A stretch of DNA of 22,938 nt from assembly GCA_036338595.1 (NCBI GenBank), contig JAYZBV010000068.1, positions 1 through 22,938 of the forward strand, written 5' to 3'. The translations under genes and the position numbers were made by a program. Numbering within the stretch: position 1 is the first letter of the stretch; every line of letters starts with the position of its first letter. Shown in pieces: positions 6,077 through 22,931 of the stretch. This stretch comes from Planctomycetota bacterium. Its GTDB lineage: Bacteria; Planctomycetota; UBA8108; UBA1146. The notes under the pieces are model-generated. The model had not been told where the DNA came from. It saw only the letters and a program-made list of their open reading frames with translations, and did not search any database.

Positions 6077-6606
6077 GGGCTGATCGTAACACGGGGCATC
6101 CTCGTTGGCAGTGAGACCCTCGGAGGTGAAACCTCTCTCACCCACGCCTCGAGCCGATGCGCAGGGAAGCGGATGGCGAGATGGAACGGAAGACGCGCTC
6201 GAAGGGATCTGCAATTCGAAGCGATCTGAAGGGAGTACTCCGCCAGTGGATCAGCCATTGCGGGCTCAACCGCTGCGATCCTGTGATCCTGAAGAAGAGA
6301 CGGCGATCTCTCACGATCTGCCAGCGATGGAATGGCGGCCATCCCATCGACACGCAGCGTGCAGATCGATGGCTCTCGACCTGTCGCAATATCGGATGGT
6401 GACGACACCATGAGTGACATTTTATTGTATCTAACACCCAGAAAATAAAGAGTTTATGGAAGGCCATGCCGATTGAGATGTGGGCAGTAGCAAGCGCTGG
6501 AACCGTCATCTAGACTCTAGAAGTCGACGGGTTTGATCGATTTTCTGACCGCAGCTGGTGCTGACTGGCAAGGTCTGATGGGTTTGACGAAATGCCCGCC
6601 AATCAT

Positions 6607-6720
6607 TTCGGGAAACTGAAGGGATCGTTTTCAACGCAGTTGACAACTCGAGGGTGAGCCGGAGGAAATCACTCGCTCCTCGAGATCGCAGGACCCACGG
6701 AGTGGTCCTGGTTTTTTTCT
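6607..6720 (+). promoter_or_regulatory. Structured 5' leader or small RNA upstream of the precursor gene, ending in a terminator-like hairpin plus U-tract
   Basis: Consecutive stems TTCGG-gaaa-CTGAA (6607-6620), TCAAC-gca-GTTGA (6631-6643), CTCGAGG...CCTCGAG (6647-6684) and CAGGAC-c-CAC-gga-GTG-GTCCTG (6689-6710), then T7 (6712-6718). Confidence 0.45.
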
Positions 6721-6747
6721 GACCAGATTTCCAAGAGAGTAGTCAAG

Positions 6748-6924
6748 ATGAGCAACTGGGAACCAGAAGAAGTATCCGACGCTGATATGGAAGGCATCGC
6801 TGGGGGAGCGGGCAAGACCTCCGCCGAGGACAAGAAGAAGGCGCAGAAAAAGGAAAACGACGGGACCGACACAGGCTTCCCGGGCGGTGGCAAAGAGGAG
6901 AAGAGACCTCCTTACAAAAAGTAA
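6748..6924 (+). CDS. Double-glycine-leader precursor peptide (bacteriocin/RiPP-like), 58 aa
   Basis: Manual translation: MSNWEPEEVSDADMEGIAGG|AGKTSAEDKKKAQKKENDGTDTGFPGGGKEEKRPPYKK. The leader end matches the ELSDxELExVAGG consensus. There is a purine-rich AAGAGAG upstream, and the gene lies directly before a C39-peptidase exporter operon. It is too short for the ORF track. Confidence 0.85.
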   Translation: MSNWEPEEVSDADMEGIAGGAGKTSAEDKKKAQKKENDGTDTGFPGGGKEEKRPPYKK

Positions 6925-6984
6925 TTCTAGGCTGAAGATGGAGGCACCTGCCACGGCCTTGTCGTGTGGGTGCCATCCGTTTCG

Positions 6985-7037
6985 AGAACCGGTCGCCTCC
7001 GCCGATGTGGCGGGTAGGCGGTCGGTTCTTTTTTCTT
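6985..7037 (+). terminator. Intrinsic terminator after the precursor gene
   Basis: AGAACCGGTCGCCT-CCGCC pairs with GGCGG-gt-AGGCGGTCGGTTCT (two G-U pairs, 2-nt bulge), followed by TTTTTCTT. Confidence 0.75.
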
Positions 7038-7102
7038 GATCGTTGGTGGATCCACATCCGGAGACTGGATGCGGATCAGTTCAAGACTGTAGAGGTGGGC
7101 AG

Positions 7103-7657
7103 TTGCGAAATTCTCTCATCATCCTGGGAGTCCTCGAGGATCAGGATATCGAGTGGTTCGTGCGCGTCGGGCAGACCGCTGTGATTCAGGAAGCCGACAT
7201 CCTCATCGAAGAGGGTATTCATATCGAGTCCCTCTGGTTCGTTCTCGAAGGGGCCCTGACGGTTACCACCATCACCGACACGACAAAGAAACTGGCGACC
7301 ATCTATCCTGGCGAGATTGTTGGCGAGGTTTCGTTCCTCGACTCAAGGCCTCCTGCGGTCACATTGATAGCTGCGGAACGAACCACGGTACTGCAAATCT
7401 CTCGTACCGAACTCAAGACGAAACTCCACAACGACACCGGATTTGCCAGTCGATTCTATCGAGCGCTCGGAGTCTGTCTGGCTCAACGGCTGATTCACCT
7501 GACCCACACGACGCTGACGGTCAGCACCCTGGGCAAGGTAGATTCAGACGCTGATGTGGACGACGACAGTTCGATCGTCGATCCGGATGTACTGGAGGCG
7601 ATGTCGCTGGCTAGCCGCCGCTTCGCATACCTGCTCGAAAGGGCCAGCAATCACTGA
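7103..7657 (+). CDS. Cyclic-nucleotide-binding domain protein associated with bacteriocin-type transport (TIGR03896-like, single domain)
   Basis: ILIEEG, LWFVLEG, PGEIVGEVSFLDSRPPAVT and GFASRFYRAL motifs; no CRP HTH domain. Probable TTG start at 7103 (MRNSLIILGVLEDQDIEW) after GAGGTG. Confidence 0.85.
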   Translation: MRNSLIILGVLEDQDIEWFVRVGQTAVIQEADILIEEGIHIESLWFVLEGALTVTTITDTTKKLATIYPGEIVGEVSFLDSRPPAVTLIAAERTTVLQISRTELKTKLHNDTGFASRFYRALGVCLAQRLIHLTHTTLTVSTLGKVDSDADVDDDSSIVDPDVLEAMSLASRRFAYLLERASNH

Positions 7658-7692: not shown

Positions 7693-9135
7693 TTGTCCAC
7701 CGAAAAGCCCACTCTGTTTCGCCAGAAGGCTCTCGAACACATCTCGACACCCGAACAACTGGATACGATGTTGCAGGTGCTTCCCAGACGGAACTGGATT
7801 CCGCTGCTGGTGGTCGGGCTCGGCTGTCTCGGTTTCGGTATCTGGTGCGTCTTTGGCCAGATTCCCGTCAATGTGCAGGCCAGCGGCATCATGGTCTATC
7901 CGGGACGCATCGTGCCGCTGCAGAGCCACTCGCAGGGGCAACTGCTGGTGCTCAATGTCAAGGTCGGTGACGAGGTATCCAGGGGACAGGTACTCGGGGA
8001 GGTCTATCAGCCGGAACTCTCGGAGCAGGAAGCGGTGGAGAAGGAACTGCTCGAAGAACTCAGAACCAAGATTTCCACCACGGAACCGCTGAGAAAATTC
8101 ACGCTTGAATCGGAAAAGAATTTCATCGAGGCCAAGCGGAGCTGGTATCAGCAGCGAATCGAGATCAACACCGAATTGGCCAATGCCCGTCATGCAGAAA
8201 GTGACCGGTACCTGTCTCGCCAATCGAGTCAGATGCTCGAATATCAATCCGATCTCGAGGTACTGGGGGGCTTCCTGGCGAAGAAACTCTCTGACTTCGA
8301 GGCGTTGACCGAACAGAAGATCTTTGCCGAGTACGATCAAGAGGTCACCGATACGCGCCAGGAATTGCTGAACAACAAGGTTGCCCTGTCCGAGTTGAAG
8401 TTGAAGCAGCAGGAGATCGAGTTTCAGCGACTCAAGTTCCTCGCTGAGCATCAGGTTCGCCTCGATGGCATCGAGGAACTGAAAAGAAACCTGGAAGAAC
8501 TCGGGGTCCAGAATGCGAGGCTGGATCAGGCAGAGTTGACCGCTGCAACGAAGACTCGCCTCGAACTGGCAGAGGCGCAGGGACGCCTTCAAAGACTGAC
8601 ACGGAGTCACTCTCATCAATCGACCATCGTCTCTCCCCACTCGGGAAAAGTGCTCGAACTGACCGTTTCGCCGGGCCAGGTGCTCACACAGGGGCAGCAA
8701 ATCGGGCTGATCGAGAGCACGGGCAGCCCTGACGGACTCGTTGCAGTGGCGTACTTTCCCGTCAAGGACGGCAAGAAGATCCAGTCTGGAATGAAGACTC
8801 GCATCACTCCGACAACCATCAAGCGTGAAAGGTATGGCAGCATCGTCGGCGATATTACCACTGTATCTTCGGTACCACGCTCGACCGATTCCATCGCTGC
8901 CATCGTCGGAAATCGAGAGCTGGCGATGAGTTTTGGTACCGGGGGATCGATGATCGAGGTTCGAAGCAGCCTGGAAGCGGCTGACGAGAATCCCAGTGGG
9001 TATCGATGGTCATCGGGCAAGGGTCCGGACATCTCGATCACTTCAGGGATGACGGTCACCGTCGATGCCACCATCGAGTACCGAAAACCGATCACGTTTC
9101 TGCTACCGTTCCTCCGTGACCTCGGTGGTAACTAG
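7693..9135 (+). CDS. NHLM/NHLP-type bacteriocin secretion membrane fusion protein (HlyD family, TIGR03794-like)
   Basis: N-terminal LFRQKALEHISTPEQLD motif, one transmembrane helix, long coiled coil, KRERYGSIVG and SGYRWSS motifs, KPITFLLP at the end. TTG start after GAGGAGG. Confidence 0.92.
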   Translation: MSTEKPTLFRQKALEHISTPEQLDTMLQVLPRRNWIPLLVVGLGCLGFGIWCVFGQIPVNVQASGIMVYPGRIVPLQSHSQGQLLVLNVKVGDEVSRGQVLGEVYQPELSEQEAVEKELLEELRTKISTTEPLRKFTLESEKNFIEAKRSWYQQRIEINTELANARHAESDRYLSRQSSQMLEYQSDLEVLGGFLAKKLSDFEALTEQKIFAEYDQEVTDTRQELLNNKVALSELKLKQQEIEFQRLKFLAEHQVRLDGIEELKRNLEELGVQNARLDQAELTAATKTRLELAEAQGRLQRLTRSHSHQSTIVSPHSGKVLELTVSPGQVLTQGQQIGLIESTGSPDGLVAVAYFPVKDGKKIQSGMKTRITPTTIKRERYGSIVGDITTVSSVPRSTDSIAAIVGNRELAMSFGTGGSMIEVRSSLEAADENPSGYRWSSGKGPDISITSGMTVTVDATIEYRKPITFLLPFLRDLGGN

Positions 9136-9141
9136 GTCAAC

Positions 9142-11325
9142 ATGGCAAGAGCGATCAACAAACGCGTCAGGACCCCAACTGTACTCCAACTGGAGGCGGT
9201 GGAGTGTGGTGCTGCATCGCTTGCGATGATCCTCGGCTATCACGGCAGAATAGAACCACTTGCGAAGTTGCGTCAGAATTGTGGTGTTTCGCGCGATGGC
9301 AGCAAGGCTGCCAATGTGCTTCGCGCTGCCCGTCGCTACGGTCTCGAGGCCAATGGGATCAAGGCCAGCGTCGATGCTCTCCGCGCCCAGAGGATGCCCT
9401 GTATCCTCTTCTGGGAGTTCAACCACTTCGTCGTACTCGAGGGCTTCAAGGATGACAGGGCCTACATCAATGATCCTGCGATGGGGCATCGAGTGATTCC
9501 CATTGCAGATTTCGAGCGCAGTTTCACGGGTGTTGCGCTGGCGATGAAACCGGGCGAGGAGTTCACCCGGGGAGGAAAGAAACCGAGCCTGGTGAGGGCC
9601 GTGAAGGAACGGTTGGCGGGCTCTGCACTGCCCATCGCCTTCTGCATCTTCATCGGCTTCTTGATGGTGATTCCGGGGATCCTCTTTCCGGTGCTGTTGC
9701 AGGTTTTTCTCGACGAGATCATCCTGGAAGGAAGAACGGACTGGGCACGGACCATCATGATGGCGATGTTTTTCGCCATCTTGATGGGGCTGGGTCTCAA
9801 GTACCTGCAATTGAATTCTCTGCGAAGACTTCGCTTGAATCTGACGATCAAACTTTCGAGCCAGTTCATGTGGCACCTCCTGCAGTTGCCCAATGAGTTC
9901 TATGTCCAGAGATTTGCAGGAGAGGTCGCCAACAGGAGCCAGTTGAATCAAGACCTGGCATCCGATCTCTCGGGACGGCTTGCCCAGACAGTCATCGATG
10001 TTGCGATGGCGGTACTCTATCTGACTGTGATGCTCTACTACGATGTCATGCTGACCTGTATCGGCATCTGCATCGCATTGCTCAACTTTTTCATCCTGAA
10101 GTGGATCTCTGCAAGCCGCATCGAGGCTTCGATGCGAGTGCTGCAGGAGTTCGGAAAAGCTGAAGGCACTGCGATGGCAGGCCTCAAGGGGATGGAGACG
10201 ATCAAGGCCAGTGGATTGGAAGCCGGATTCTATGAGAAGTGGTCGGGGTACTATTCGAAGGCGATCAATGCGCAGCAAAACCTGCAGGTGTCCAATGTGC
10301 TGCTGAGTACGATGCCTGCGATGCTCAGCGCTCTGGCGACGATACTCGTCATCATCGTGGGAGGCTTCAGGGTCATAGATGGGGTCATGACCATCGGAAT
10401 GCTCGTCGCGTTCCAGTCGCTGATGAGTTCCTTCCTGGGGCCGGTCGAGAATCTGCTCGATCTCGGCTCGATGACCCAGGAGATGCGAGGGGACCTCGAC
10501 CGGATCGACGATGTGCTGAAGTACCCCTTCGAGCGAAAGGAAGAGGAGACTCAGGACGCTGGCGATGGCGAAAAGACCTTCCTCACCGGAGAGATTCGCG
10601 TCGAGAACGTCTCCTTCGGCTACAACCCGCTCGAGCCGCCACTGCTGGAGGATCTGAGTCTTCACATCAAACCGGGAGATCGAGTGGCCCTCGTCGGAGG
10701 AAGTGGCTCGGGAAAATCGACGCTGGCGAAATTGATCTCTGGAGAACTGGTTCCCTGGAGCGGCGAGATCTATTTTGATGGAATATCCAGCACCGAACTG
10801 CCCAGGAATCTGTTCGTGAACTCGTTTTCCTTCATCAGCCAGGAGATCCTGCTCTTCAGTGGCACGGTTCGTGACAATCTGACGCTGTGGGATTCCACCG
10901 TCCCGGAGCAGGATCTGCAGCAAGCCTGCGAAGATGCTGCGATCCTCGACACCATCACTGAATTACCTGGCGGATTCGATGCGGATCTGATCGAGGGTGG
11001 AGACAACCTCAGCGGAGGACAGAAGCAGCGAATCGAGATCGCAAGAACCCTCGTGACAAATCCGACGATACTGATCCTCGATGAGGCGACCAGTGCACTC
11101 GATACGGAAACAGAGCGAATCGTGCTGGATCGGATGAGGATGAGAGGTTGCTCATCCATCTTCGTCTCGCACCGATTGAGCACCATCCGGGACTGCACAG
11201 AAATCATCGTACTCGAGCACGGTAAGGTTGTTGAGCGCGGCAACCATGATGAACTGTGGAACTCGGACGGTGCATACGCGGAACTGCTCAAGCTGGATGA
11301 CGAGTTCAAGGAGGAGAGCGCGTGA
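9142..11325 (+). CDS. NHLM-type ABC transporter with C39 peptidase, permease and ATPase domains (TIGR03796-like)
   Basis: TPTVLQLEAVECGAASL (catalytic Cys), WEFNHFVV (His) and INDP (Asp); CGVSRDGSKA; Walker A GGSGSGKST, signature LSGGQKQR, Walker B ILILDEATS. Confidence 0.95.
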   Translation: MARAINKRVRTPTVLQLEAVECGAASLAMILGYHGRIEPLAKLRQNCGVSRDGSKAANVLRAARRYGLEANGIKASVDALRAQRMPCILFWEFNHFVVLEGFKDDRAYINDPAMGHRVIPIADFERSFTGVALAMKPGEEFTRGGKKPSLVRAVKERLAGSALPIAFCIFIGFLMVIPGILFPVLLQVFLDEIILEGRTDWARTIMMAMFFAILMGLGLKYLQLNSLRRLRLNLTIKLSSQFMWHLLQLPNEFYVQRFAGEVANRSQLNQDLASDLSGRLAQTVIDVAMAVLYLTVMLYYDVMLTCIGICIALLNFFILKWISASRIEASMRVLQEFGKAEGTAMAGLKGMETIKASGLEAGFYEKWSGYYSKAINAQQNLQVSNVLLSTMPAMLSALATILVIIVGGFRVIDGVMTIGMLVAFQSLMSSFLGPVENLLDLGSMTQEMRGDLDRIDDVLKYPFERKEEETQDAGDGEKTFLTGEIRVENVSFGYNPLEPPLLEDLSLHIKPGDRVALVGGSGSGKSTLAKLISGELVPWSGEIYFDGISSTELPRNLFVNSFSFISQEILLFSGTVRDNLTLWDSTVPEQDLQQACEDAAILDTITELPGGFDADLIEGGDNLSGGQKQRIEIARTLVTNPTILILDEATSALDTETERIVLDRMRMRGCSSIFVSHRLSTIRDCTEIIVLEHGKVVERGNHDELWNSDGAYAELLKLDDEFKEESA

Positions 11326-14222
11326 TGAATCCAGAATCACAACTACTGGAGAAGAGCGGCACGATCAGGGTGGTTTCAGGCCACCTTGCGTTGCTGTTGA
11401 ATGATCCGGAGTTGATCTGGGTCGTCATCGACGGCCAGGGTGAGGTCGTATCCACCGATGTGAAAGATTCTCTGGCCACGGGTCGTCGCCGATTCATCTG
11501 TAATACGAGTGCGGGCGATGTTCTGTTTTCACTGCCTGCAGAGCACGCCACCGAAACACACGCTGCGATGCTGATTTCCCAGGAGTCCCTGCGGGTCATC
11601 GAGTTGCCGAGGGACCAGCTCGAATTTGCCGCATCCTCGATGGGACGCACTGCGATCGAGGCGATCGGGAACTGGGCGACCCGGATCTTCCCGCTGCTGG
11701 ATTCTGGATCTTCTCCCGCTTCCTGTGAGCGGGTCATCGCTGGAGACAGCCAGGTGCTCTCTCCTGGCTACAGGATCGCTCCGGCACCGGATCAGGAAGC
11801 ATGGATTCGAATTGGACAGGGTGAAGGCAATTTTGTCGGCAGCCATCGCGTGTCCTTCGAGGATGACCTGGTGCTCTCTCCCGCAGGAAGCTGGGTCGAG
11901 GCCACCGATGAGATGAAGTTCGAGGTGATGGACCCGTCCCTGGTCACCGAGGATGCCGCCTGGAATGCGCTGTATCGACTCCATGAAATCATCCAGCGCA
12001 AGAGATCAGAAGCCCGGTTACGTGAAGGAGAGATGAACCTGGAAAGGGTGCGGCAAAGGACTTCCATCGAGGAGAAGAAATCTGAACGCGCCCTGGCTCA
12101 GATGGCATCGGTCTTGAATCCGCAATCGACCCCTGCAGTCCATGGTGAAGATCTCTACTCCGTGATGAAACTGGTGGGGTCGGTGAAAGGGATCGAGATC
12201 TTGCCGATGGCAGACTCGACCGACATCGAGACGCTGAGCGACCCGGCAGAGGCGATCACCCGCGCTTCTCGAATCCAGTACCGCAGGGTCATGTTCAGGG
12301 GGAAGTGGTGGAAGAGCGATGTCGGCCCGCTGGTTGGCTACCTCACCGAGGACGGCAGACCCGTGGCGATCCTGCAGGACGCCAGGGGGCGCTACATGAT
12401 CCGTGACCCCAGAGATGACTCTTCCACGCCGGTGAGTGAGGAGACCGCTTCGCTGTTGCATCAGGATGCCATCGTCCTGATCCGATCTCTTGAAGAGGAT
12501 GAGAAGAGTCCCTTCGGCCTGATTGCGTTTTGCCTGAAGAACAAGTTTCCAGACATGGCCACATTCTTCCTGGCAGCGATGTTCCTCACGGTCCTGGGTA
12601 TGCTCATCCCTCAGGCGATGGCGATCGTTCTCGACAATGCGATCCCCAATTCCAATCCAAGACTGCTGATAGAACTCGGTGGAGCGCTGATCGCTGTTTC
12701 GCTGGGAATGACGATGCTGAGAGTCTTCCAGGCATTTGTCAGCATTCGACTCTCGGTGAGCACCGATTTCGATGCGCAATCGGCGATCTGGGATCGCCTG
12801 CTGCGGCTGAAGGTTTCCTTCTTCTCGCAGTACTCGACGGGGGACCTGTTGCAGCGAGTATCCGCAGCGCACGCCATCAGCCAGGAGTTCAGTGGTTCGA
12901 CGCTGCTGACCTTGATGACATCATTCATGGCACTGTTGAATGTTGCATTGCTGTTTTACTACAGTTCAAAACTGGCTCTCATGGCGATCGCCATCGCCAT
13001 CCTCGTTGCCATCGTCACGATGGTCGGAGGCGCACTGATCCGAAGGTATGCCAAGAAATTGATGGAGCAAGAGGGCGAATTGTTCGGTTTCGAGGTGCAA
13101 CTGATCAGTGCGGTCAGCAAGTTACGCGTTTCCGGTGCGGAAAGAAGAGCGTTTGCACTCTGGATGGAGCGAGTCGCTCGTCAGTTGAACCTGTCCAACA
13201 AGGTGCAAAGAGTTTCCGATGGGATGACCCTCTTCAATCAGGGCATTCCGATGCTGAGCACCTTGCTTCTCTTCATGCTTGCGATCCCGCTCGTCACGGA
13301 TCAGGGCCCGGCCGGGACGACCCTCTCGATCGGTATCTTCCTGGCCTTCAATACAGCTCTTGGCATCTTTCTCGGGGGAGCGCTGACATTGAGTTCGACC
13401 ATCGTCGGCTTCCTGGATACGACCGTTCTGGCAGGTCGAATGCAGCCTCTGCTGGAAGCCGAAATGGAAACGGTTTCCGCCAGTGTGGATCCCGGAAAAC
13501 TGAAGGGAGACATCGAGCTCTCGAGAATCCATTTCCGCTACTCCCCCGATGGCCCGAAAGTACTCGAGGATGTATCGATTCATGCAAAACCCGGCGAACT
13601 CATCGCACTGACAGGCACATCCGGTTGCGGAAAATCGACCTTGTTGAGATTGATGCTTGGATTCGAGACTCCTGAGAGCGGTGAAGTTCGCTTCGACGGG
13701 CAAGAGATCGATTCGATCGATGCGACGGCAGTTCGGCGTCAATTGGGAGTGGTCCTTCAATCGGGTCATCTTGCTGCTGGTTCCATCTTCGAAAATATCA
13801 CCGTTGGCGCCATTCATACCATGGAAGAAGCGTGGGAAGCTGCGCAGGAGGCGGGGATCGCAGACGATATCCGGGCGATGCCGATGGAGATGCACACTGT
13901 CGTCAGTGAAGGGGGCAGTAACCTGTCCGGCGGGCAAAGACAGAGACTCCTCATCAGCCGAGCCTTGATTCGAAGGCCCAAGATTCTGTTCCTCGACGAA
14001 GCAACCAGTGCGCTTGATAATCGTGCCCAGCAGATCGTCAACGACAGCCTCAAGAGAAGGCGCGTCACTCGCATCGTGATCGCGCACCGACTCAGTTCGA
14101 TTCGTGCTGCAGATTGCATCTATGTTCTCGATCGCGGCCGTGTTGTCGAGCAGGGGGATTACAGAGAGCTGGTCGCTGCCGGAGGAACATTTGCAGGTCT
14201 GGTCGCACGGCAGACCACATAG
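11322..14222 (+). CDS. Second NHLM-type ABC transporter, ATP-binding/permease with a long N-terminal region and degenerate C39-like domain (TIGR03797-like)
   Basis: Start overlaps the upstream stop (GTGATGA). ASRIQYRRV..WWKSDVGPL motif, transmembrane domain, Walker A GTSGCGKST, LSGGQRQR, LFLDEATSALD. Confidence 0.93.
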   Translation: MMNPESQLLEKSGTIRVVSGHLALLLNDPELIWVVIDGQGEVVSTDVKDSLATGRRRFICNTSAGDVLFSLPAEHATETHAAMLISQESLRVIELPRDQLEFAASSMGRTAIEAIGNWATRIFPLLDSGSSPASCERVIAGDSQVLSPGYRIAPAPDQEAWIRIGQGEGNFVGSHRVSFEDDLVLSPAGSWVEATDEMKFEVMDPSLVTEDAAWNALYRLHEIIQRKRSEARLREGEMNLERVRQRTSIEEKKSERALAQMASVLNPQSTPAVHGEDLYSVMKLVGSVKGIEILPMADSTDIETLSDPAEAITRASRIQYRRVMFRGKWWKSDVGPLVGYLTEDGRPVAILQDARGRYMIRDPRDDSSTPVSEETASLLHQDAIVLIRSLEEDEKSPFGLIAFCLKNKFPDMATFFLAAMFLTVLGMLIPQAMAIVLDNAIPNSNPRLLIELGGALIAVSLGMTMLRVFQAFVSIRLSVSTDFDAQSAIWDRLLRLKVSFFSQYSTGDLLQRVSAAHAISQEFSGSTLLTLMTSFMALLNVALLFYYSSKLALMAIAIAILVAIVTMVGGALIRRYAKKLMEQEGELFGFEVQLISAVSKLRVSGAERRAFALWMERVARQLNLSNKVQRVSDGMTLFNQGIPMLSTLLLFMLAIPLVTDQGPAGTTLSIGIFLAFNTALGIFLGGALTLSSTIVGFLDTTVLAGRMQPLLEAEMETVSASVDPGKLKGDIELSRIHFRYSPDGPKVLEDVSIHAKPGELIALTGTSGCGKSTLLRLMLGFETPESGEVRFDGQEIDSIDATAVRRQLGVVLQSGHLAAGSIFENITVGAIHTMEEAWEAAQEAGIADDIRAMPMEMHTVVSEGGSNLSGGQRQRLLISRALIRRPKILFLDEATSALDNRAQQIVNDSLKRRRVTRIVIAHRLSSIRAADCIYVLDRGRVVEQGDYRELVAAGGTFAGLVARQTT

Positions 14223-15098: not shown

Positions 15099-15229
15099 GT
15101 GAGAGTACCAGATCCATCGGAATGGGGTGTGGCGGCCCTGAAGCACCCTTACCGTCTCACCACTGACGCAGTGCAGATGATCATCGACGATCAATGGCTC
15201 ATGGATGCCAACTTCAGAAGGGCCGACAC

Positions 15230-16990
15230 ATGTCTGATATCGATGTAGCCGCAAAGCCGGTCCCCGATGCAGAATCGTCCAGAACATCCAGAATCGTCCT
15301 CCGGGAAGCCACCGAGGAAGATCGCGAGGAGATTTACCGCTCACGCCATGATGTGTATGCCGTCGAACTGGGTCAGCACCCACAGAACCCGGATGGTTTG
15401 CTGAAGAATCATCTGGATGAGTTCAATCGCTACTTCGTGGCGCTCATCGATGGGCAGATGGCTGGCTTCATCAGCGTCACTCCACCGGAGGGGGGAGAAT
15501 TCTCCCTCGATGGATACCTGGATCGGGAGCAGTGGCCCTTCGAGGATCGTGATCGGTTGTTCGAAGTTCGGCTGTTGACGGTGAACTCAAGACGGCGAGG
15601 TTCGCTACTGGCGACAGCGCTGATGTATGCCTCGTTTCGGGCAGTGGAAGCGAGCGGAGGAACCCGGTTGGTCGTCATCGGCCGCACCGAGGTGGCCTCC
15701 ATCTATCGCAGTAGCGGATATCAGGACCATGGCGTCGAACTGGTCAGGGGAGACGTGACCTTTCGGCTGATGAGTGCCACCGTCGATCAAGTCAGGCAGC
15801 AGGTCGAGAATCGATCGCAACTACTGTCGCGGATCGAGCAGGCGGTCGACTGGCAACTGCCGGTACCGCTGAGAAAGCCTGCGGCTTGCTTTCATGGCGG
15901 CGGCTTTTTCAACGATGTGGGGGATGGTTTCCAGACTCTTTCGCGACGGCAGGAGATCATCAATGCGGATGTACTCGATGCCTGGTTCCCTGCCGCTCCC
16001 GGGGTGATTTCCACTCTCTCCGAGCACCTCGACTGGCTGGTTCGAACATCGCCTCCGACCGGTTGCGAGGGACTGGTCGCGGCGATCGCTGCTGCGCGGG
16101 GTGTGCCAGAGACGTGTATCTTGCCGGGGGCGGGGTCATCCGATCTGATCTTTCTCGCCTTCAACCAGTGGCTCGAGTCATCGAGCCGGGTGTTGTTGCT
16201 CGATCCAACCTATGGCGAGTACTTCCATGTCTGTGAACAGGTGCTGCGCTGTCAGGTGGATCGCTTCTCGCTGCGACGAGAAGAGGGCTTCGAGGTCGAT
16301 GGCGAAAAGTTGCAGGAACAACTCGCGGATGGGAATTACGACCTGGTAGTGGTGGTCAATCCCAACAGTCCCACCGGCCGTCATCTTCCGCTGAGAGAGT
16401 TAAAGTCGATCATCGAGACAACAGCACAATCCACTCGCTTCTGGATCGATGAGACCTACATCGAGTACGTCGGCAGCGAGCATTCGCTGGAACGGTTTGG
16501 CTGCCAGCGAAGAAACGTGGTGGTTTGCAAGTCGATGTCGAAGGGGTACGCGCTGTCGGGTGTGCGATCGGCATATCTCTGTGCGTCACCCGAACTGCTC
16601 GAACCGTTGCGAGCCTTGACTCCGCCGTGGGCGGTCAGTTTGCCGGGTCAAGTGGCAGCGGTGAAGGCACTCGAGGATCCACAGTATTACCAGACGCAAT
16701 ATCAGGCGACCGCGATGGCACGCGAATCGATGGCCCGAGACCTGCAAGAACTGGGGCTCGAGGTGATTCCATCGGTGGCTAACTTCTTGCTGACCTTTCT
16801 TCCCCCCGATGGGCCGACCGCGGCACAGGTCATCGAACGGTGCCGCCAGTCAGGAGTTCATCTGAGGGATGCCAGCAACATGGGAAGTGCCCTGGGAACC
16901 CATTCGCTCAGGACTGCGGTCAAGTCGCCGCAGCAGAACCAGCAGATCGTGAAAGCCATCGCCGGGGCGCTGTCGCCTGCACAGGCCTGA
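15230..16990 (+). CDS. Fusion of an N-terminal GNAT-fold acyltransferase and a class I/II PLP aminotransferase/decarboxylase (HisC/CobD-like)
   Basis: N-terminal REEIYRSRHDVYAVELG, AGFISVTPP and EVRLLTV..RRGS. C-terminal GAGSSDLI, PTYGEY, VNPNSPTG, IDETY and KSMSKGYALSGVR (PLP lysine). Probable start is the ATG at 15230; the track gives 15194. Confidence 0.85.
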   Translation: MSDIDVAAKPVPDAESSRTSRIVLREATEEDREEIYRSRHDVYAVELGQHPQNPDGLLKNHLDEFNRYFVALIDGQMAGFISVTPPEGGEFSLDGYLDREQWPFEDRDRLFEVRLLTVNSRRRGSLLATALMYASFRAVEASGGTRLVVIGRTEVASIYRSSGYQDHGVELVRGDVTFRLMSATVDQVRQQVENRSQLLSRIEQAVDWQLPVPLRKPAACFHGGGFFNDVGDGFQTLSRRQEIINADVLDAWFPAAPGVISTLSEHLDWLVRTSPPTGCEGLVAAIAAARGVPETCILPGAGSSDLIFLAFNQWLESSSRVLLLDPTYGEYFHVCEQVLRCQVDRFSLRREEGFEVDGEKLQEQLADGNYDLVVVVNPNSPTGRHLPLRELKSIIETTAQSTRFWIDETYIEYVGSEHSLERFGCQRRNVVVCKSMSKGYALSGVRSAYLCASPELLEPLRALTPPWAVSLPGQVAAVKALEDPQYYQTQYQATAMARESMARDLQELGLEVIPSVANFLLTFLPPDGPTAAQVIERCRQSGVHLRDASNMGSALGTHSLRTAVKSPQQNQQIVKAIAGALSPAQA

Positions 16991-17558: not shown

Positions 17559-17671
17559 CGCACACCCTCCTGGGCGCTAGATTATCGTTTTCGATCAGGG
17601 ATTGCGACCTGCTCCATCTAAGGGCACGATCTCGGTTCACCATGGCCATCGTATGGCCCGAAAGGATACCG

Positions 17672-18331
17672 ATGCAGATCGAACTGGAAGGCAATCCAGA
17701 TTTCGGTGAGGCGCGCGTGCAACTGGAATCGGGAGAGGGTATTCGTGCCGCCTCCGGCGCGATGAACTGGATGAAGGGACCGATCAGTCTCAAGGCGAGG
17801 CTGCTCGGAGGGTTGGGAACTTCCCTCGCTCGTAAGGTACTCGGCGGCACTTCTCTCTTCATCACGGAATTCAGTGCAGACGGGGACAGCCGGCTGGCAC
17901 TCAGCCATGCGATGGCGGGAACCCTGGTTCGCACTCCCGTGACCAGTGAAGGGTTGCTGATTGCGGGGGGGGCTTTCACCGCCTGCACTCGAGGCGTTCG
18001 TCTCAAGACTCGATTCGGTGGCTTCAAGGCGTTCTTCAGCGGCAAGGGGGCGTTCTTCATCGAAGCAGCAGGCGAAGGTGAAGTGCTGTTCGGTGCCTAC
18101 GGTGCGGTGGTCGAGAAGGAACTCGATGGAGACCTCGTTGTCGACAACGGCCATGTGCTGGCGTGGGAGCACACTCTCGACTGGAAACTGGGGACTGCCG
18201 GAGGACTCAAGACCACTCTCTTCTCCGGCGAGGGGTTGGTGATGCGTTTCTCGGGGCGCGGCAAGATCTGGTTGCAGACGCGTCATCTGTCCGGGACGGC
18301 GGGGTGGATCACCCCGTTCCTGAGAGGGTAA
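17672..18331 (+). CDS. AIM24 / TIGR00266 family protein (copy 1)
   Basis: SGAM, GGTSLFITEF, FFSGKG, GAYGA, VVDNGHVLAW, GEGLVMRFSGRGKIWLQTR. Start is the ATG at 17672 after AAAGGA. Confidence 0.9.
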   Translation: MQIELEGNPDFGEARVQLESGEGIRAASGAMNWMKGPISLKARLLGGLGTSLARKVLGGTSLFITEFSADGDSRLALSHAMAGTLVRTPVTSEGLLIAGGAFTACTRGVRLKTRFGGFKAFFSGKGAFFIEAAGEGEVLFGAYGAVVEKELDGDLVVDNGHVLAWEHTLDWKLGTAGGLKTTLFSGEGLVMRFSGRGKIWLQTRHLSGTAGWITPFLRG

Positions 18332-18335
18332 GGCG

Positions 18336-19022
18336 ATGGAGTTTGAAATTCTCGAGCAAGGAGCCTTCCAGTCGGCGTTGGCGCACTTCGAGGCGGGCGA
18401 GCGCGTCGTCAGCGAATCGGGGGCGATGGTGCGCGCTTCCGGCAATGTGGATATCGATGTCACGACCCGGGCCAAGAAGGGCGGAGGACTTCTCTCCGGA
18501 GTGAAGCGGATGCTCGGTGGTGATTCCTTCTTCCTCTCCACCTATACCACAACAGATGGGGCTCCAGGCGAGGTGGGCATCGCGCCGATCTTGCCGGGAG
18601 AGGTGATGGCTCTCGAAGTGGATGGCGCGACGCAGTGGAAGACCAGCGGCGGTTCCTTTCTCGCCGCAGGAGGAGACATCGACCTGGATACGGAGTTTCA
18701 GGGACTCGGTGGATTCCTCGGCGGCGAGAGCCTCTTCTTTCTCAAGGCGACTGGTTCTGGATCGTTGCTGGTCGGAGCCTTCGGAGCACTCCGTGAACTG
18801 GAAGTCGATGGAGAGTTGACGATAGACACCGGCCACCTGGTCGCCTACGAGTCGACCCTCGACTACTCGGTTTCCAAGGCAGGGGGTTCGTGGATGCAGT
18901 CTTTTCTCGCGGGTGAAGGATTTGTCATGAAGTTCAGTGGCCGTGGTCGTGTCATCGTTCAGACCCACGACGCGAGTGGATTCGGCAGACGGCTCGGTCC
19001 CATGCTGCCGGCGAGGGGGTAA
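18336..19022 (+). CDS. AIM24 / TIGR00266 family protein (copy 2)
   Basis: SESGAM, GGDSFF, GGESLFFL, GAFGA, IDTGHLVAY, GEGFVMKFSGRGRVIVQT. Confidence 0.9.
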   Translation: MEFEILEQGAFQSALAHFEAGERVVSESGAMVRASGNVDIDVTTRAKKGGGLLSGVKRMLGGDSFFLSTYTTTDGAPGEVGIAPILPGEVMALEVDGATQWKTSGGSFLAAGGDIDLDTEFQGLGGFLGGESLFFLKATGSGSLLVGAFGALRELEVDGELTIDTGHLVAYESTLDYSVSKAGGSWMQSFLAGEGFVMKFSGRGRVIVQTHDASGFGRRLGPMLPARG

Positions 19023-19025
19023 TAG

Positions 19026-19700
19026 ATGAAATACAAGATCGATTGCCACCCGGGGTATTCATACCTGGAAGTGGAACTGGAGAGCACCGACTCCATCTCC
19101 AGCGAGGCAGGAGCGATGGCCTGGATGGATCCTGGAATCGAGATGGAGACATCGACGAGAGGTGGGGTTTTCAAGGGATTGAAGCGCGCACTGCTCTCGG
19201 GAGAGTCCTTCTTCCAGAATACTTACACCACCAATACTTCCGGTGCTCGACTCAGCCTGGCGCCTGGTCCAGCAGGAGCCATCTCGGTGAGAGAGATGCA
19301 GGGAGAGGAATTATTCCTCCAGAAGGGTGCCTATCTGGCCTCCATCGGAGACATCGACATCAATGCAAAGTTCGATGGGTTGCGGGGCTTCTTCAATGAA
19401 GGCCTGTTCGTGCTGCGCTGCTCGGGTACAGGTACTCTCTTCTTCAATGCCTATGGCGATATCCAGGAGGTCGAGGTGGACGGGGAATACCTGGTCGACA
19501 ATGGATATGCCGTCGCCTGGGAGCCGAGCCTCGAATATCGTCTGACCAAGGCGAGACGGATCCGTTCCTTCCTGTTCGGCGATCAGATCCTGCTGCGCTT
19601 CTCCGGTCGTGGCAAGGTATGGGTGCAATCACGCTGTCCCCATGCCTTTGCGAGCTGGGTCCACCCGTATCGGCCGAAGAAACAGAAGAGTGACAACTGA
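19026..19700 (+). CDS. AIM24 / TIGR00266 family protein (copy 3)
   Basis: SEAGAM, SGESFFQN, LAPG, EGLF, AYG, VDNGYAVAW, RFSGRGKVWVQSR. Confidence 0.9.
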   Translation: MKYKIDCHPGYSYLEVELESTDSISSEAGAMAWMDPGIEMETSTRGGVFKGLKRALLSGESFFQNTYTTNTSGARLSLAPGPAGAISVREMQGEELFLQKGAYLASIGDIDINAKFDGLRGFFNEGLFVLRCSGTGTLFFNAYGDIQEVEVDGEYLVDNGYAVAWEPSLEYRLTKARRIRSFLFGDQILLRFSGRGKVWVQSRCPHAFASWVHPYRPKKQKSDN

Positions 19701-19740
19701 TTGCCTACCCTGCTTCAAGCTTGCTGATCGGAGAATGAAG

Positions 19741-20907
19741 ATGGAAAAAAGAGCCGACGAGTCATTGCTCCCATCGGAAGCGATGGATCGATTCGTCAAG
19801 ATTGCTGAAAAGGTCGAACTCGATGCGGGAGAAGAGTTCATCCGTGAGGGTGATTTCGAAGAGAGCATCTATCTGATCGAGAGTGGCCAGGTTGCAGTCG
19901 AAAGGGGACAGCAGCGTGTGGGCACCATCGATGCCGGTGATGTGGTCGGCGAGATGGCGTTCATTGATCGACGGCCTCGAAGCGCAACGGTTCGTGCAGT
20001 GACATCATCCGTGCTGCATCGAGTCGAGCGAGAAGATCTGCTGCGAGAACTGGGTCAGGATCCGGAACTGCTGCTGGAGTTCGTCCAGGCGGTGGAACAA
20101 AGGCGCGTGGCTCACCTCGATTCTTCCGTCGATCAGGGCCTCGAGGGGTTTCTATCCGGGGTGACCGAAGAGGCGACCTCGCATCGTGCAGTTCATCACC
20201 CATATCTTCTGGCGCTTCGCGACAGGACATTCCCGGACATGAAGTGGGCTCTTGGTGATTTTGCCAGGCAGTACTATGGATATTCCTCTCACTTTCCTCG
20301 CTACCTGACGACGGTGATCGGCAGGCTCGAACTTCCCGAACATCGCACCGCATTGATGGAAAATCTCACCGAGGAGGCAGGAATTTATGAGGAGGAGGAA
20401 CTCGCTGAACTGGCAGAGATCGGTGTCGATAGGCAGTGGGTCGACGGCATTCCGCATCCGCTGCTATTCCGTCGCTTCTGCATCGCAGCTGGGGTCGAGG
20501 ATGTCGGACCTGATCTCGATTCGATAGAAGTGATCTGCTGGCGCGAGATGTTTCTATCGGTGCTCTCCGGAGGCTCTCCTGCGGAGGCGATCGGGGCCAT
20601 CGGACTCGGCACTGAAAATGTGGTCAGTACCATGTATCAGCACTTCCTGCCAGCGCTCGAGGTGCTCGAAGTGCCGGAGTCAGAGACGGTTTTCTTCCCG
20701 TTGCACGCAGCAGTCGATGACCACCACCAGGAGACACTTCTCGAAATCTCCAGACATTACGCCACCACTGAAGCGGGTCGGATCGATCTACTCAAGGGGA
20801 TGCGAAAGGCGCTGGCACTCAGGTCTGCGTTCTGGGACTGGCTACATCAGCGAGCCATGACCCTTGGAGTCTGCGATGAGGGGACCACGACTCGTTTCAG
20901 CTCCTGA
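19741..20907 (+). CDS. cNMP-binding domain fused to a heme-oxygenase-like diiron (CADD/PqqC/TenA-like) domain
   Basis: N-terminal FIREGD, IYLIESG and GDVVGEMAFIDRRPRSATV. C-terminal QYYGYSSHFPRYL, ENLTEE, PHPLLFRRF, GTE and FFPLHAAVDDHH give an E/H/E/H/D/H ligand set like CADD. Start is 19741 (or 19735) after GGAGA. Confidence 0.8.
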   Translation: MEKRADESLLPSEAMDRFVKIAEKVELDAGEEFIREGDFEESIYLIESGQVAVERGQQRVGTIDAGDVVGEMAFIDRRPRSATVRAVTSSVLHRVEREDLLRELGQDPELLLEFVQAVEQRRVAHLDSSVDQGLEGFLSGVTEEATSHRAVHHPYLLALRDRTFPDMKWALGDFARQYYGYSSHFPRYLTTVIGRLELPEHRTALMENLTEEAGIYEEEELAELAEIGVDRQWVDGIPHPLLFRRFCIAAGVEDVGPDLDSIEVICWREMFLSVLSGGSPAEAIGAIGLGTENVVSTMYQHFLPALEVLEVPESETVFFPLHAAVDDHHQETLLEISRHYATTEAGRIDLLKGMRKALALRSAFWDWLHQRAMTLGVCDEGTTTRFSS

Positions 20908-21972: not shown

Positions 21973-22046
21973 CATCCCTTCTTGCCTCTCTCCCAGGATG
22001 CGGGAAACTGCCCCCCAACAAGTCGTCGATGGGCAAGGGGGGTCCT

Positions 22047-22931
22047 ATGCATCTGTTTCTTCTGGTTCCTGTGATTTTCTTTTTTCTTTCAGGATGCATC
22101 GTCGTGCAATCCGACGCTGCCAGGGTAGATCCCGAAACTGGAGCGATACGCCTCAGATTGGCAGCCGAACCCGCTGCGGATGAAGCCGCCGCTGAGTTCG
22201 AGGAGGACCTTCACGAAGAAGACGATGACGATGATGATGCCGACGATGACGATGATGACAACGATGATGGTGATGATGACGACAATGACGAGATCACTGC
22301 CCAGCGCGACGAGGTGGAGCAACTGGAGCGGAAACTCCACGAAGCCGAGGTCAAGATGGAGATCTCCGAGTTCCAGTGGCATCTCGCAGAAGATGAGACC
22401 GAGCATCAGCGGGAATCGGAACATCGAGCGCTGGAGGAAGCGAACAGGGATCGGCACCTGTTCCACGAGTTTGGCGAGGCCAAGAAAACGCACGGTGCCC
22501 ATCAGTCGCTCTCCTATGCAGAAAACAGGCTGCAAGATGCAGAGGCGGAACTGGAGCAACTCTCGACCCTCTACGAGGGCTCCGAACTGGAGGACGGGAC
22601 TGCAGAACTGATCCTATCCAGGGGAGAGCGCCAGCTCGACCAGGCCAGGAAATCGCTCGAGCAGGCGCGGCGCGATCATCATGTCAGTCTTACCATCGAG
22701 ATCCCCCAGCAACGGGAATCTCTTGAGCGAGCCGTGTCCGATGCCGAGCGTGCGATGGAACGAGGCGAAATAGAGCGTCGGATCGCAGAGATGGAACATG
22801 AGCTGGGGTCGCAAGAGCAGCGCCGTGAACTGGAGAAGCTACGGGAGAAACTGGAGAAAGCTCGCCATGACCTTCGAAACATGACGGGAGAAGTCGTCGA
22901 ACCCAGGTCCCTCGTCTGGAGATTGTTCTGA
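22047..22931 (+). CDS. Hypothetical acidic coiled-coil lipoprotein with a poly-Asp tract
   Basis: Signal MHLFLLVPVIFFFLSGC with lipobox LSGC, an Asp-rich tract, then E/R/L-rich heptad-like helices. ATG at 22047 after a G-rich RBS. Confidence 0.75.
   Translation: MHLFLLVPVIFFFLSGCIVVQSDAARVDPETGAIRLRLAAEPAADEAAAEFEEDLHEEDDDDDDADDDDDDNDDGDDDDNDEITAQRDEVEQLERKLHEAEVKMEISEFQWHLAEDETEHQRESEHRALEEANRDRHLFHEFGEAKKTHGAHQSLSYAENRLQDAEAELEQLSTLYEGSELEDGTAELILSRGERQLDQARKSLEQARRDHHVSLTIEIPQQRESLERAVSDAERAMERGEIERRIAEMEHELGSQEQRRELEKLREKLEKARHDLRNMTGEVVEPRSLVWRLF
22221..22289 (+). repeat. Imperfect (GAY)n trinucleotide repeat encoding poly-Asp
   Basis: 23 codons read DDDDDDADDDDDDNDDGDDDDND (19 Asp), with mixed GAC/GAT codons. 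Confidence 0.9.

Follow-up and report, generated by a model that had tools for sequence, protein, structure and literature searches.

The window analysed here, a stretch of 22,938 nucleotides, is an entire contig from a planctomycetal genome of 2.9 Mb that is 88% complete. At positions 6748-6924, the forward strand carries an open reading frame with an ATG start, a TAA stop and a translation of 58 amino acids, which is preceded by a purine-rich, Shine-Dalgarno-like stretch at 6733-6739. Translation and residue counts agree with the preliminary description of this DNA, which had divided the product into a 20-residue double-glycine leader (6748-6807) and a 38-residue core (6808-6924, with the stop codon). 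The leader has Val, Met and Ile at positions -12, -7 and -4 and ends in Gly-Gly, while the core, the predicted mature peptide, is rich in Lys, Gly, Asp and Pro; it contains ten Lys, one Arg, four Glu and three Asp residues but no Cys, and has a net charge of +4. The accompanying claim that the gene is unannotated applied to the reading-frame list used at the time and to nothing beyond it: NCBI, NCBI nr and Logan hold the exact sequence as a called, nameless protein. A Pfam scan of the precursor matched no family, an NCBIfam scan returned two models only, both far under their cut-offs, and we treat the top feature score of 0.85 in the ESM Atlas purely as a lead.

The precursor gene stands at the head of a four-gene NHLM exporter operon. 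On the same strand follow genes for a protein with a cyclic-nucleotide-binding fold (7043-7657), an HlyD-type adaptor (7693-9135; TIGR03794, 291.5 bits, cut-off 156.2), an ABC exporter with a C39 peptidase domain (9142-11325; TIGR03796, 1032.3 bits, cut-off 853.3) and a second ABC subunit without peptidase (11322-14222; TIGR03797, 845.2 bits, cut-off 709.4), the last three being adjacent and all over their cut-offs. A profile search of the whole genome (88% complete) found no second C39 domain. In this single copy the catalytic residues Cys22, His95 and Asp111 are intact, Gln16 is kept, and the nearest solved relative is LahT150 (PDB 6MPZ; E 2.8e-47). The closest exporter loci are mostly in Planctomycetota MAGs, UBA1146 and TMED53 among them, and the nearest exporters outside are in a Phycisphaeraceae MAG (58%) and in cyanobacteria (50-54%). 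The protein encoded at 7043-7657 has a single domain and corresponds to half of TIGR03896, a model of two cyclic-nucleotide domains, which it matches with 114.1 bits (cut-off 161) at profile positions 138-316 only. The position that we take to be the Arg of the phosphate-binding motif is occupied by Pro, and this Arg is replaced in all 31 distinct segments homologous to 7043-7657; the product is probably a degenerate sensor domain. Between the precursor and the exporter genes lies a terminator-like site (6936-7036) with two stable hairpins, the second of which (6984-7030) is followed by a U-run; none of 200 shuffles was equally stable (z -4.94), and a terminator scan made no call there.

Further downstream in the window, a fusion of GNAT/FeeM-like and aminotransferase domains (15194-16990) lies near the exporter in several relatives, and a different contig carries part of a second copy. 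A cyclic-nucleotide domain fused with a heme-oxygenase-like diiron domain (19609-20907) is preceded by three similar reading frames at 17642-19700, presumably AIM24-like, and a coiled-coil-like reading frame with a long Asp run (22029-22931) matches no family over cut-off.

The preliminary description had regarded the peptide as the substrate of the adjacent exporter, an assignment for which synteny, co-occurrence, the single intact C39 domain and leader residues of the kind that LahT150 needs now argue together. The recognition motif reported for LahT150 comprises the final 13 residues of the leader, those at -12, -7 and -4 being hydrophobic, with tolerance on the P' side (PMC6363468), and the leader fits this rule for double-glycine PCAT substrates; family-wide agreement with the rule is partly built into our search pattern. 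Among 10 distinct orthologous leader DNAs we counted 16 extra synonymous codons against 5 extra amino acids, the first 7 codons being fixed by the search pattern for some, metagenome-derived loci. All 13 relatives whose contigs reach far enough upstream have a precursor gene that ends no more than 500 nt before the cyclic-nucleotide gene; three further contigs, which stop within 160 nt, are outside this count. A family profile built from 19 sequences, partly exporter-linked copies, gave 2-17 matches per genome (E up to 0.1) in 16 of the remaining 27 family genomes, and the exporter HlyD was found in 17 of these 27. Precursors were present in 16 of the 17 HlyD-positive family genomes as against none of the 10 HlyD-negative ones, with both states occurring inside two genera; the genomes are related, and these counts are hence not independent. 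Unlinked precursor copies follow the same pattern. Outside the family, the profile matched none of the 31 genomes searched from the same class (E up to 0.001), and a search of viral contigs returned no relatives of the precursor.

The exception, genome G009, has a divergent exporter (48%) and the sole Nif11 match among the 28 genomes: at L148:2311-6773, a Nif11-like precursor with a predicted core of 5 residues and a gene with AMP-binding and condensation domains are found beside this exporter. Genome G021 has an exporter fragment with ABC genes at a contig end and gave no HlyD or precursor match. In G024 (9% contamination), identical-scoring precursor pairs occur on contigs C45/C48 and C35/C50, and these duplicates make its total of 17 too high.

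Within the genome studied here, a widened leader pattern matched seven Met-started frames, namely six short reading frames and one stretch within a long reading frame, compared with 0-3 matches (mean 0.9) in 10 residue shuffles, so that such frames are more numerous than expected by chance. The six short precursors, including the 58-residue one, lie at four places on three contigs and make up a paralogous, hypervariable family that the preliminary description had missed; in the regions that we read, the neighbours of unlinked precursors are housekeeping or uncharacterised genes. Chains with two to four leader repeats (P0027, L033:2541-2801 and P0196-P0227) suggest polyproteins that would be cut repeatedly by a C39 peptidase. 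We propose that the precursor belongs to a family of short double-glycine precursors, as the member linked to the exporter. The C39 domain would bind the last 13 leader residues and then cut after Gly-Gly, as expected from PCAT biochemistry, the two ABC subunits and the HlyD adaptor would export the 38-residue core, and the same exporter would also serve the five unlinked paralogs. Homology and linkage make it very likely that the adjacent transporter cleaves the precursor and exports its core, and we hold this scheme, one exporter for all six precursors included, with high confidence.

Translation of the precursor is predicted, and its transcription is consistent with RNA-library contigs that span the gene in three of the four runs examined out of 17 (6540-6931, 6531-6902 and 6531-6852; 0-1 differences), the fourth giving scattered pieces only. 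The three runs are filed under three studies, two of them of one year and possibly from one campaign, and the runs containing part of the stretch are marine. The contigs are not proof of transcription, since neither strand nor level can be read from them and DNA may be present in libraries of this type; no near-identical contig covered the exporter genes in the three runs, a gap that shows nothing. Together with the reading frame, the contigs cover a 5' leader of about 215 nt (6531-6747) that is conserved in a genus alignment. Ahead of it, a -10-like hexamer (6511-6516), partly invariant in seven genus members, is a putative promoter element on which a sigma-70 scan made no call. A hairpin or palindrome with a conserved loop (6589-6609) has no other copy in the genome and recurs, with wobble-type changes, ahead of exporter-linked precursors in genus g5; a sigma-54 site and pairing of the loop with downstream sequence both proved a poor fit to this element on inspection. 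In another hairpin (6647-6732), the loop at 6664-6670 has a complement at 6726-6732, immediately ahead of the Shine-Dalgarno-like stretch, and might form a pseudoknot. This complement was found in 11 of 11 leaders from two genera (as the longest partner helix in 9), with 0.006-0.047 expected by chance per sequence and one compensatory change; we regard it as a lead only. We do not regard a terminator-like hairpin at 6689-6710 (chance expectation 0.7) as an attenuator, because its U-run is not conserved in six relatives. Rfam gave nothing near cut-off in the 5' leader here or in 11 related loci, and the fold of the whole leader was no better than shuffles (z 0.08; eight pieces, z -2.05 to +1.15). 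We take the region as a lead for a candidate, undescribed cis element.

The nature of the cargo was assessed from 131 distinct precursors, 67 from loci and 64 from a protein search, many of them close kin, with median lengths of 20 residues for the leader and 38 for the core. Lys accounts for 19.9% of the core residues versus 2.5% in the long reading frames of this genome (18.1% across 61 clusters at 50% identity) and outnumbers Arg about 10 to 1. Cys occurs in 8 cores, GRAVY is below -1 in 112, and Lys is the C-terminal residue in 79. Among the 61 dereplicated cores, 27 end in Lys (shuffle mean 11.0), 13 end in Gly-Lys (1.5 shuffled) and 26 have Gly at position 2 (8.2 shuffled); Pro-aromatic pairs and early Lys were not enriched in this set. 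The short leader had been called atypical, which did not hold up. At 64 NHLM exporter loci of other phyla we recorded 79 unverified pattern matches, of which 38 have at most 30 residues from the nearest Met, a distance that an internal Met can shorten, and a CTB-family precursor with a 17-residue leader passes its model cut-off beside such an exporter. These 79 matches have a Lys content of 3.3%, and Cys occurs in 39 of them, so that the new part is the composition of the cargo, with 20% versus 3% Lys, and not the short leader. The 42 profile matches in a library at 50% identity include short-leader hydrophilic peptides of unknown origin, and the broader peptide type is thus not confined to this family.

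The cores also turn over quickly. Two metagenomic loci agree at 95% over the 200 nt upstream and at 97% in both the leader DNA and the following gene, whereas their cores are just 53% and their 3' spacers 58% alike, and 17 precursors with essentially the leader of the 58-residue precursor have a median core identity of 40%. Of 13 metagenome matches, 4 unrelated reading frames and 1 misassembled match were kept out of the core comparison. This turnover reads as cassette replacement combined with repeat slippage; slippage and relaxed selection could be an alternative source of the variable cores. Some paralog cores (L060:1750-1926, L061:787-963, L064:1186-1362 and L063:1219-1395) contain foreign-looking motifs: to our eye, some start like the N-terminus of a Flp pilin, and a Cys-Asp-Gly repeat in another is reminiscent of a MopE-type metal motif, with no model match for either. 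Cores may capture short foreign motifs.

Our preferred hypothesis, and the weakest part of our interpretation, is that the cores form a strain-variable repertoire acting outside the cell on kin or neighbours, in an infochemical or recognition role comparable to that suggested for CCRG-2 peptides. Selection would act on composition and ends (Lys, Gly, Asp and Pro, with a C-terminal Lys) and not on one sequence. We put inter-cell signalling or recognition by unmodified, disordered, exported peptides of this kind at somewhat less than an even chance, and the earlier idea of a signal peptide is plausible. Aharonovich and Sher reportedly proposed the infochemical role of CCRG-2 peptides in 2016. 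The CCRG-2 family (NF033456) is described as small secreted peptides with a 13-residue Gly-Gly motif (PMC8120280), features shared by the present family; unlike it, CCRG-2 was described from cyanobacteria, and NF033456 matched 0 of 19 family members (E up to 1). The main weakness of the signalling hypothesis is that no receptor or immunity gene is linked to the precursor, whereas a sequence-specific signal with swappable alleles should carry a co-varying linked receptor. Pheromones of the ComC/BlpC type need a linked histidine kinase and response regulator, and the 15 window reading frames scanned, a set that excludes the three at 17642-19700, contained no receptor kinase, response regulator or immunity gene.

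Alternatively, the exported peptides may do a physical job that is blind to sequence: cationic, disordered peptides could adsorb to or coat polyanions (the cell surface, exopolysaccharide, particles or phage) or serve as amine-rich substrates for cross-linking. Such a role would accord with a composition that is kept while the sequence turns over, with the positive net charge of 122 of the 131 cores, with a neighbourhood in which no receptor or immunity gene was seen and with several copies per 3-Mb genome. However, the net charge is just about +4, seawater screens charge, and a preference for Lys over Arg suits solubility more than sticking. Position-specific features, such as the C-terminal Lys and a capped N-terminal Lys helix (7 of 61 cores versus 0.4 shuffled), also speak against it, and we consider this role unlikely.

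The abundance of Lys could instead point to RiPPs that are tailored on Lys or on the new N-terminus by carbamoylation, methylation or acylation, with the enzyme linked in some lineages and acting in trans elsewhere. In genus g5, a 1271-residue fusion of a carbamoyltransferase and a PrmC-like methyltransferase is encoded within the exporter locus of all three exporter-positive genomes (L027:4007-7822, reverse strand, and also L185 and L186) and is missing from all three exporter-negative ones. Against this, the fusion was not found in this genome or in eight congeners, and a single event may account for all three g5 cases. A general link of the fusion to the precursors was rejected, as two other Planctomycetota have full-length homologs with no precursor or exporter in the DNA nearby; the family is widespread, with at least 288 homologs elsewhere, including cyanobacteria. 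PqqD/RRE domains were found in none of the 17 precursor-bearing genomes and in 2 of the 28 family genomes, both without precursors, and the distribution of the GNAT-aminotransferase does not follow that of the exporter, with the gene present in 4 exporter-negative genomes and not found in 5 exporter-positive ones; it was discarded as a candidate for a dedicated maturase. We rate tailoring on Lys as doubtful.

Searches of the genome for other maturases gave no matches for YcaO (control positive in 5 of 14; genome 88% complete) or for SPASM, PqqD and Nif11 (controls positive), nor for LanC, LanB, NHLP and the LanM dehydratase domain, for which the controls were silent. No long-leader precursor was found in the genome (Nif11 control positive, NHLP control silent). 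As no maturases were found, the core in this genus probably leaves the cell unmodified, as a soluble, disordered polyampholyte. The suggestion of a new RiPP class thus has no support in this genome or genus, and may still hold in the sister genus g5, where the locus includes the carbamoyltransferase-methyltransferase.

Comparisons with known systems place the locus close to several of them. The three-gene NHLM exporter is defined by TIGR03794, TIGR03796 and TIGR03797 (Haft et al., 2010, PMC2887384), and the group V bacteriocin clusters of cyanobacteria have an exporter of this type, with 16 of 37 precursors classed as neither NHLP, Nif11 nor two other named kinds (Wang et al., 2011, PMC3140520). 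Shared with these are the HlyD, C39 ABC and peptidase-less ABC proteins, the gene with a cyclic-nucleotide fold, and double-glycine precursors with hypervariable cores. The differences are one cyclic-nucleotide domain instead of two, leaders with a median of 20 residues instead of 70-83, Lys-rich, nearly Cys-free cores, and no maturase found in the genus; the 20-residue leader matched neither TIGR03793, TIGR03798 nor PF07862. Short leaders and multiple copies are also seen in CTB bacteriocins (NF038167), arrays of which precede the same cassette in cyanobacteria, but CTB cores are conserved and rich in Ser, Phe and Gln; at a model cut-off of 32 bits the 58-residue precursor had no match and 4 of 19 members matched weakly (best E 0.0058). 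The class IIb model TIGR03949 did not match the 58-residue precursor and matched 6 of 19 members (best E 1.1e-5), which we read as leader matches, the cores being hydrophilic. Scattered precursors, one exporter and P' tolerance recall the prochlorosin- and Lah-type libraries as described with LahT150 (PMC6363468), whose peptides contain Cys and are made by LanM, whereas here Cys occurs in 8 of 131 cores and LanM was not matched (control silent). By the models tested, the family would work like CCRG-2, CTB and prochlorosin-type libraries yet belongs to none of them. The earlier statement that the core fits no lanthipeptide, azole-containing peptide or membrane-active class II bacteriocin is supported by its Cys-free and hydrophilic composition, the family models and the lack of YcaO matches. 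We found no published description of this precursor family in a search that mostly lay outside subscription journals; precursors of a similar kind might be tabulated in the supplements of PMC3140520.

The exporter type and the leader, as in bacteriocins, together with cationic, Pro/Gly-rich and hypervariable cores, raise the further prospect of unmodified, non-pore bacteriocins that enter competitors and act on an internal target, which the lack of any visible immunity gene, the GRAVY below -1 in 112 of the 131 cores and the lack of a match to any bacteriocin core model make improbable. That the reading frame is no exported cargo at all but a leader or relic peptide, with the exporter serving something else, is most improbable given a leader conserved through synonymous change, strict co-occurrence with the exporter and no long-leader precursor found in the genome. 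Signalling or recognition thus heads our ranking, followed by sequence-blind binding, tailoring on Lys, non-lytic bacteriocins and, last, a peptide that is not cargo.

The most encompassing picture would be a peptide language or a defence library shared by a whole lineage of uncultured marine Planctomycetota: one exporter would secrete up to a dozen or more peptides per genome, all disordered and rich in Lys, strains would swap cores as cassettes, an undescribed, pseudoknotted leader RNA would gate translation, and g5 would have recruited the carbamoyltransferase-methyltransferase; that all of this holds jointly we think rather unlikely. If true, the g5 peptides would be the first Lys-carbamoylated or methylated double-glycine RiPPs. 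The precursor sequences supply targets for seawater peptidomics, and as the peptides can be synthesised and the protease domain expressed, the role of unmodified, hydrophilic double-glycine peptides such as CCRG-2 becomes testable. Although the export route is a known one, the cargo and its task are unfamiliar. Genome miners take NHLM exporters as markers of modified natural products rich in Cys, Ser and Thr, whereas here a family of small-genome marine bacteria keeps such an exporter for several unmodified-looking, disordered and strain-variable peptides.
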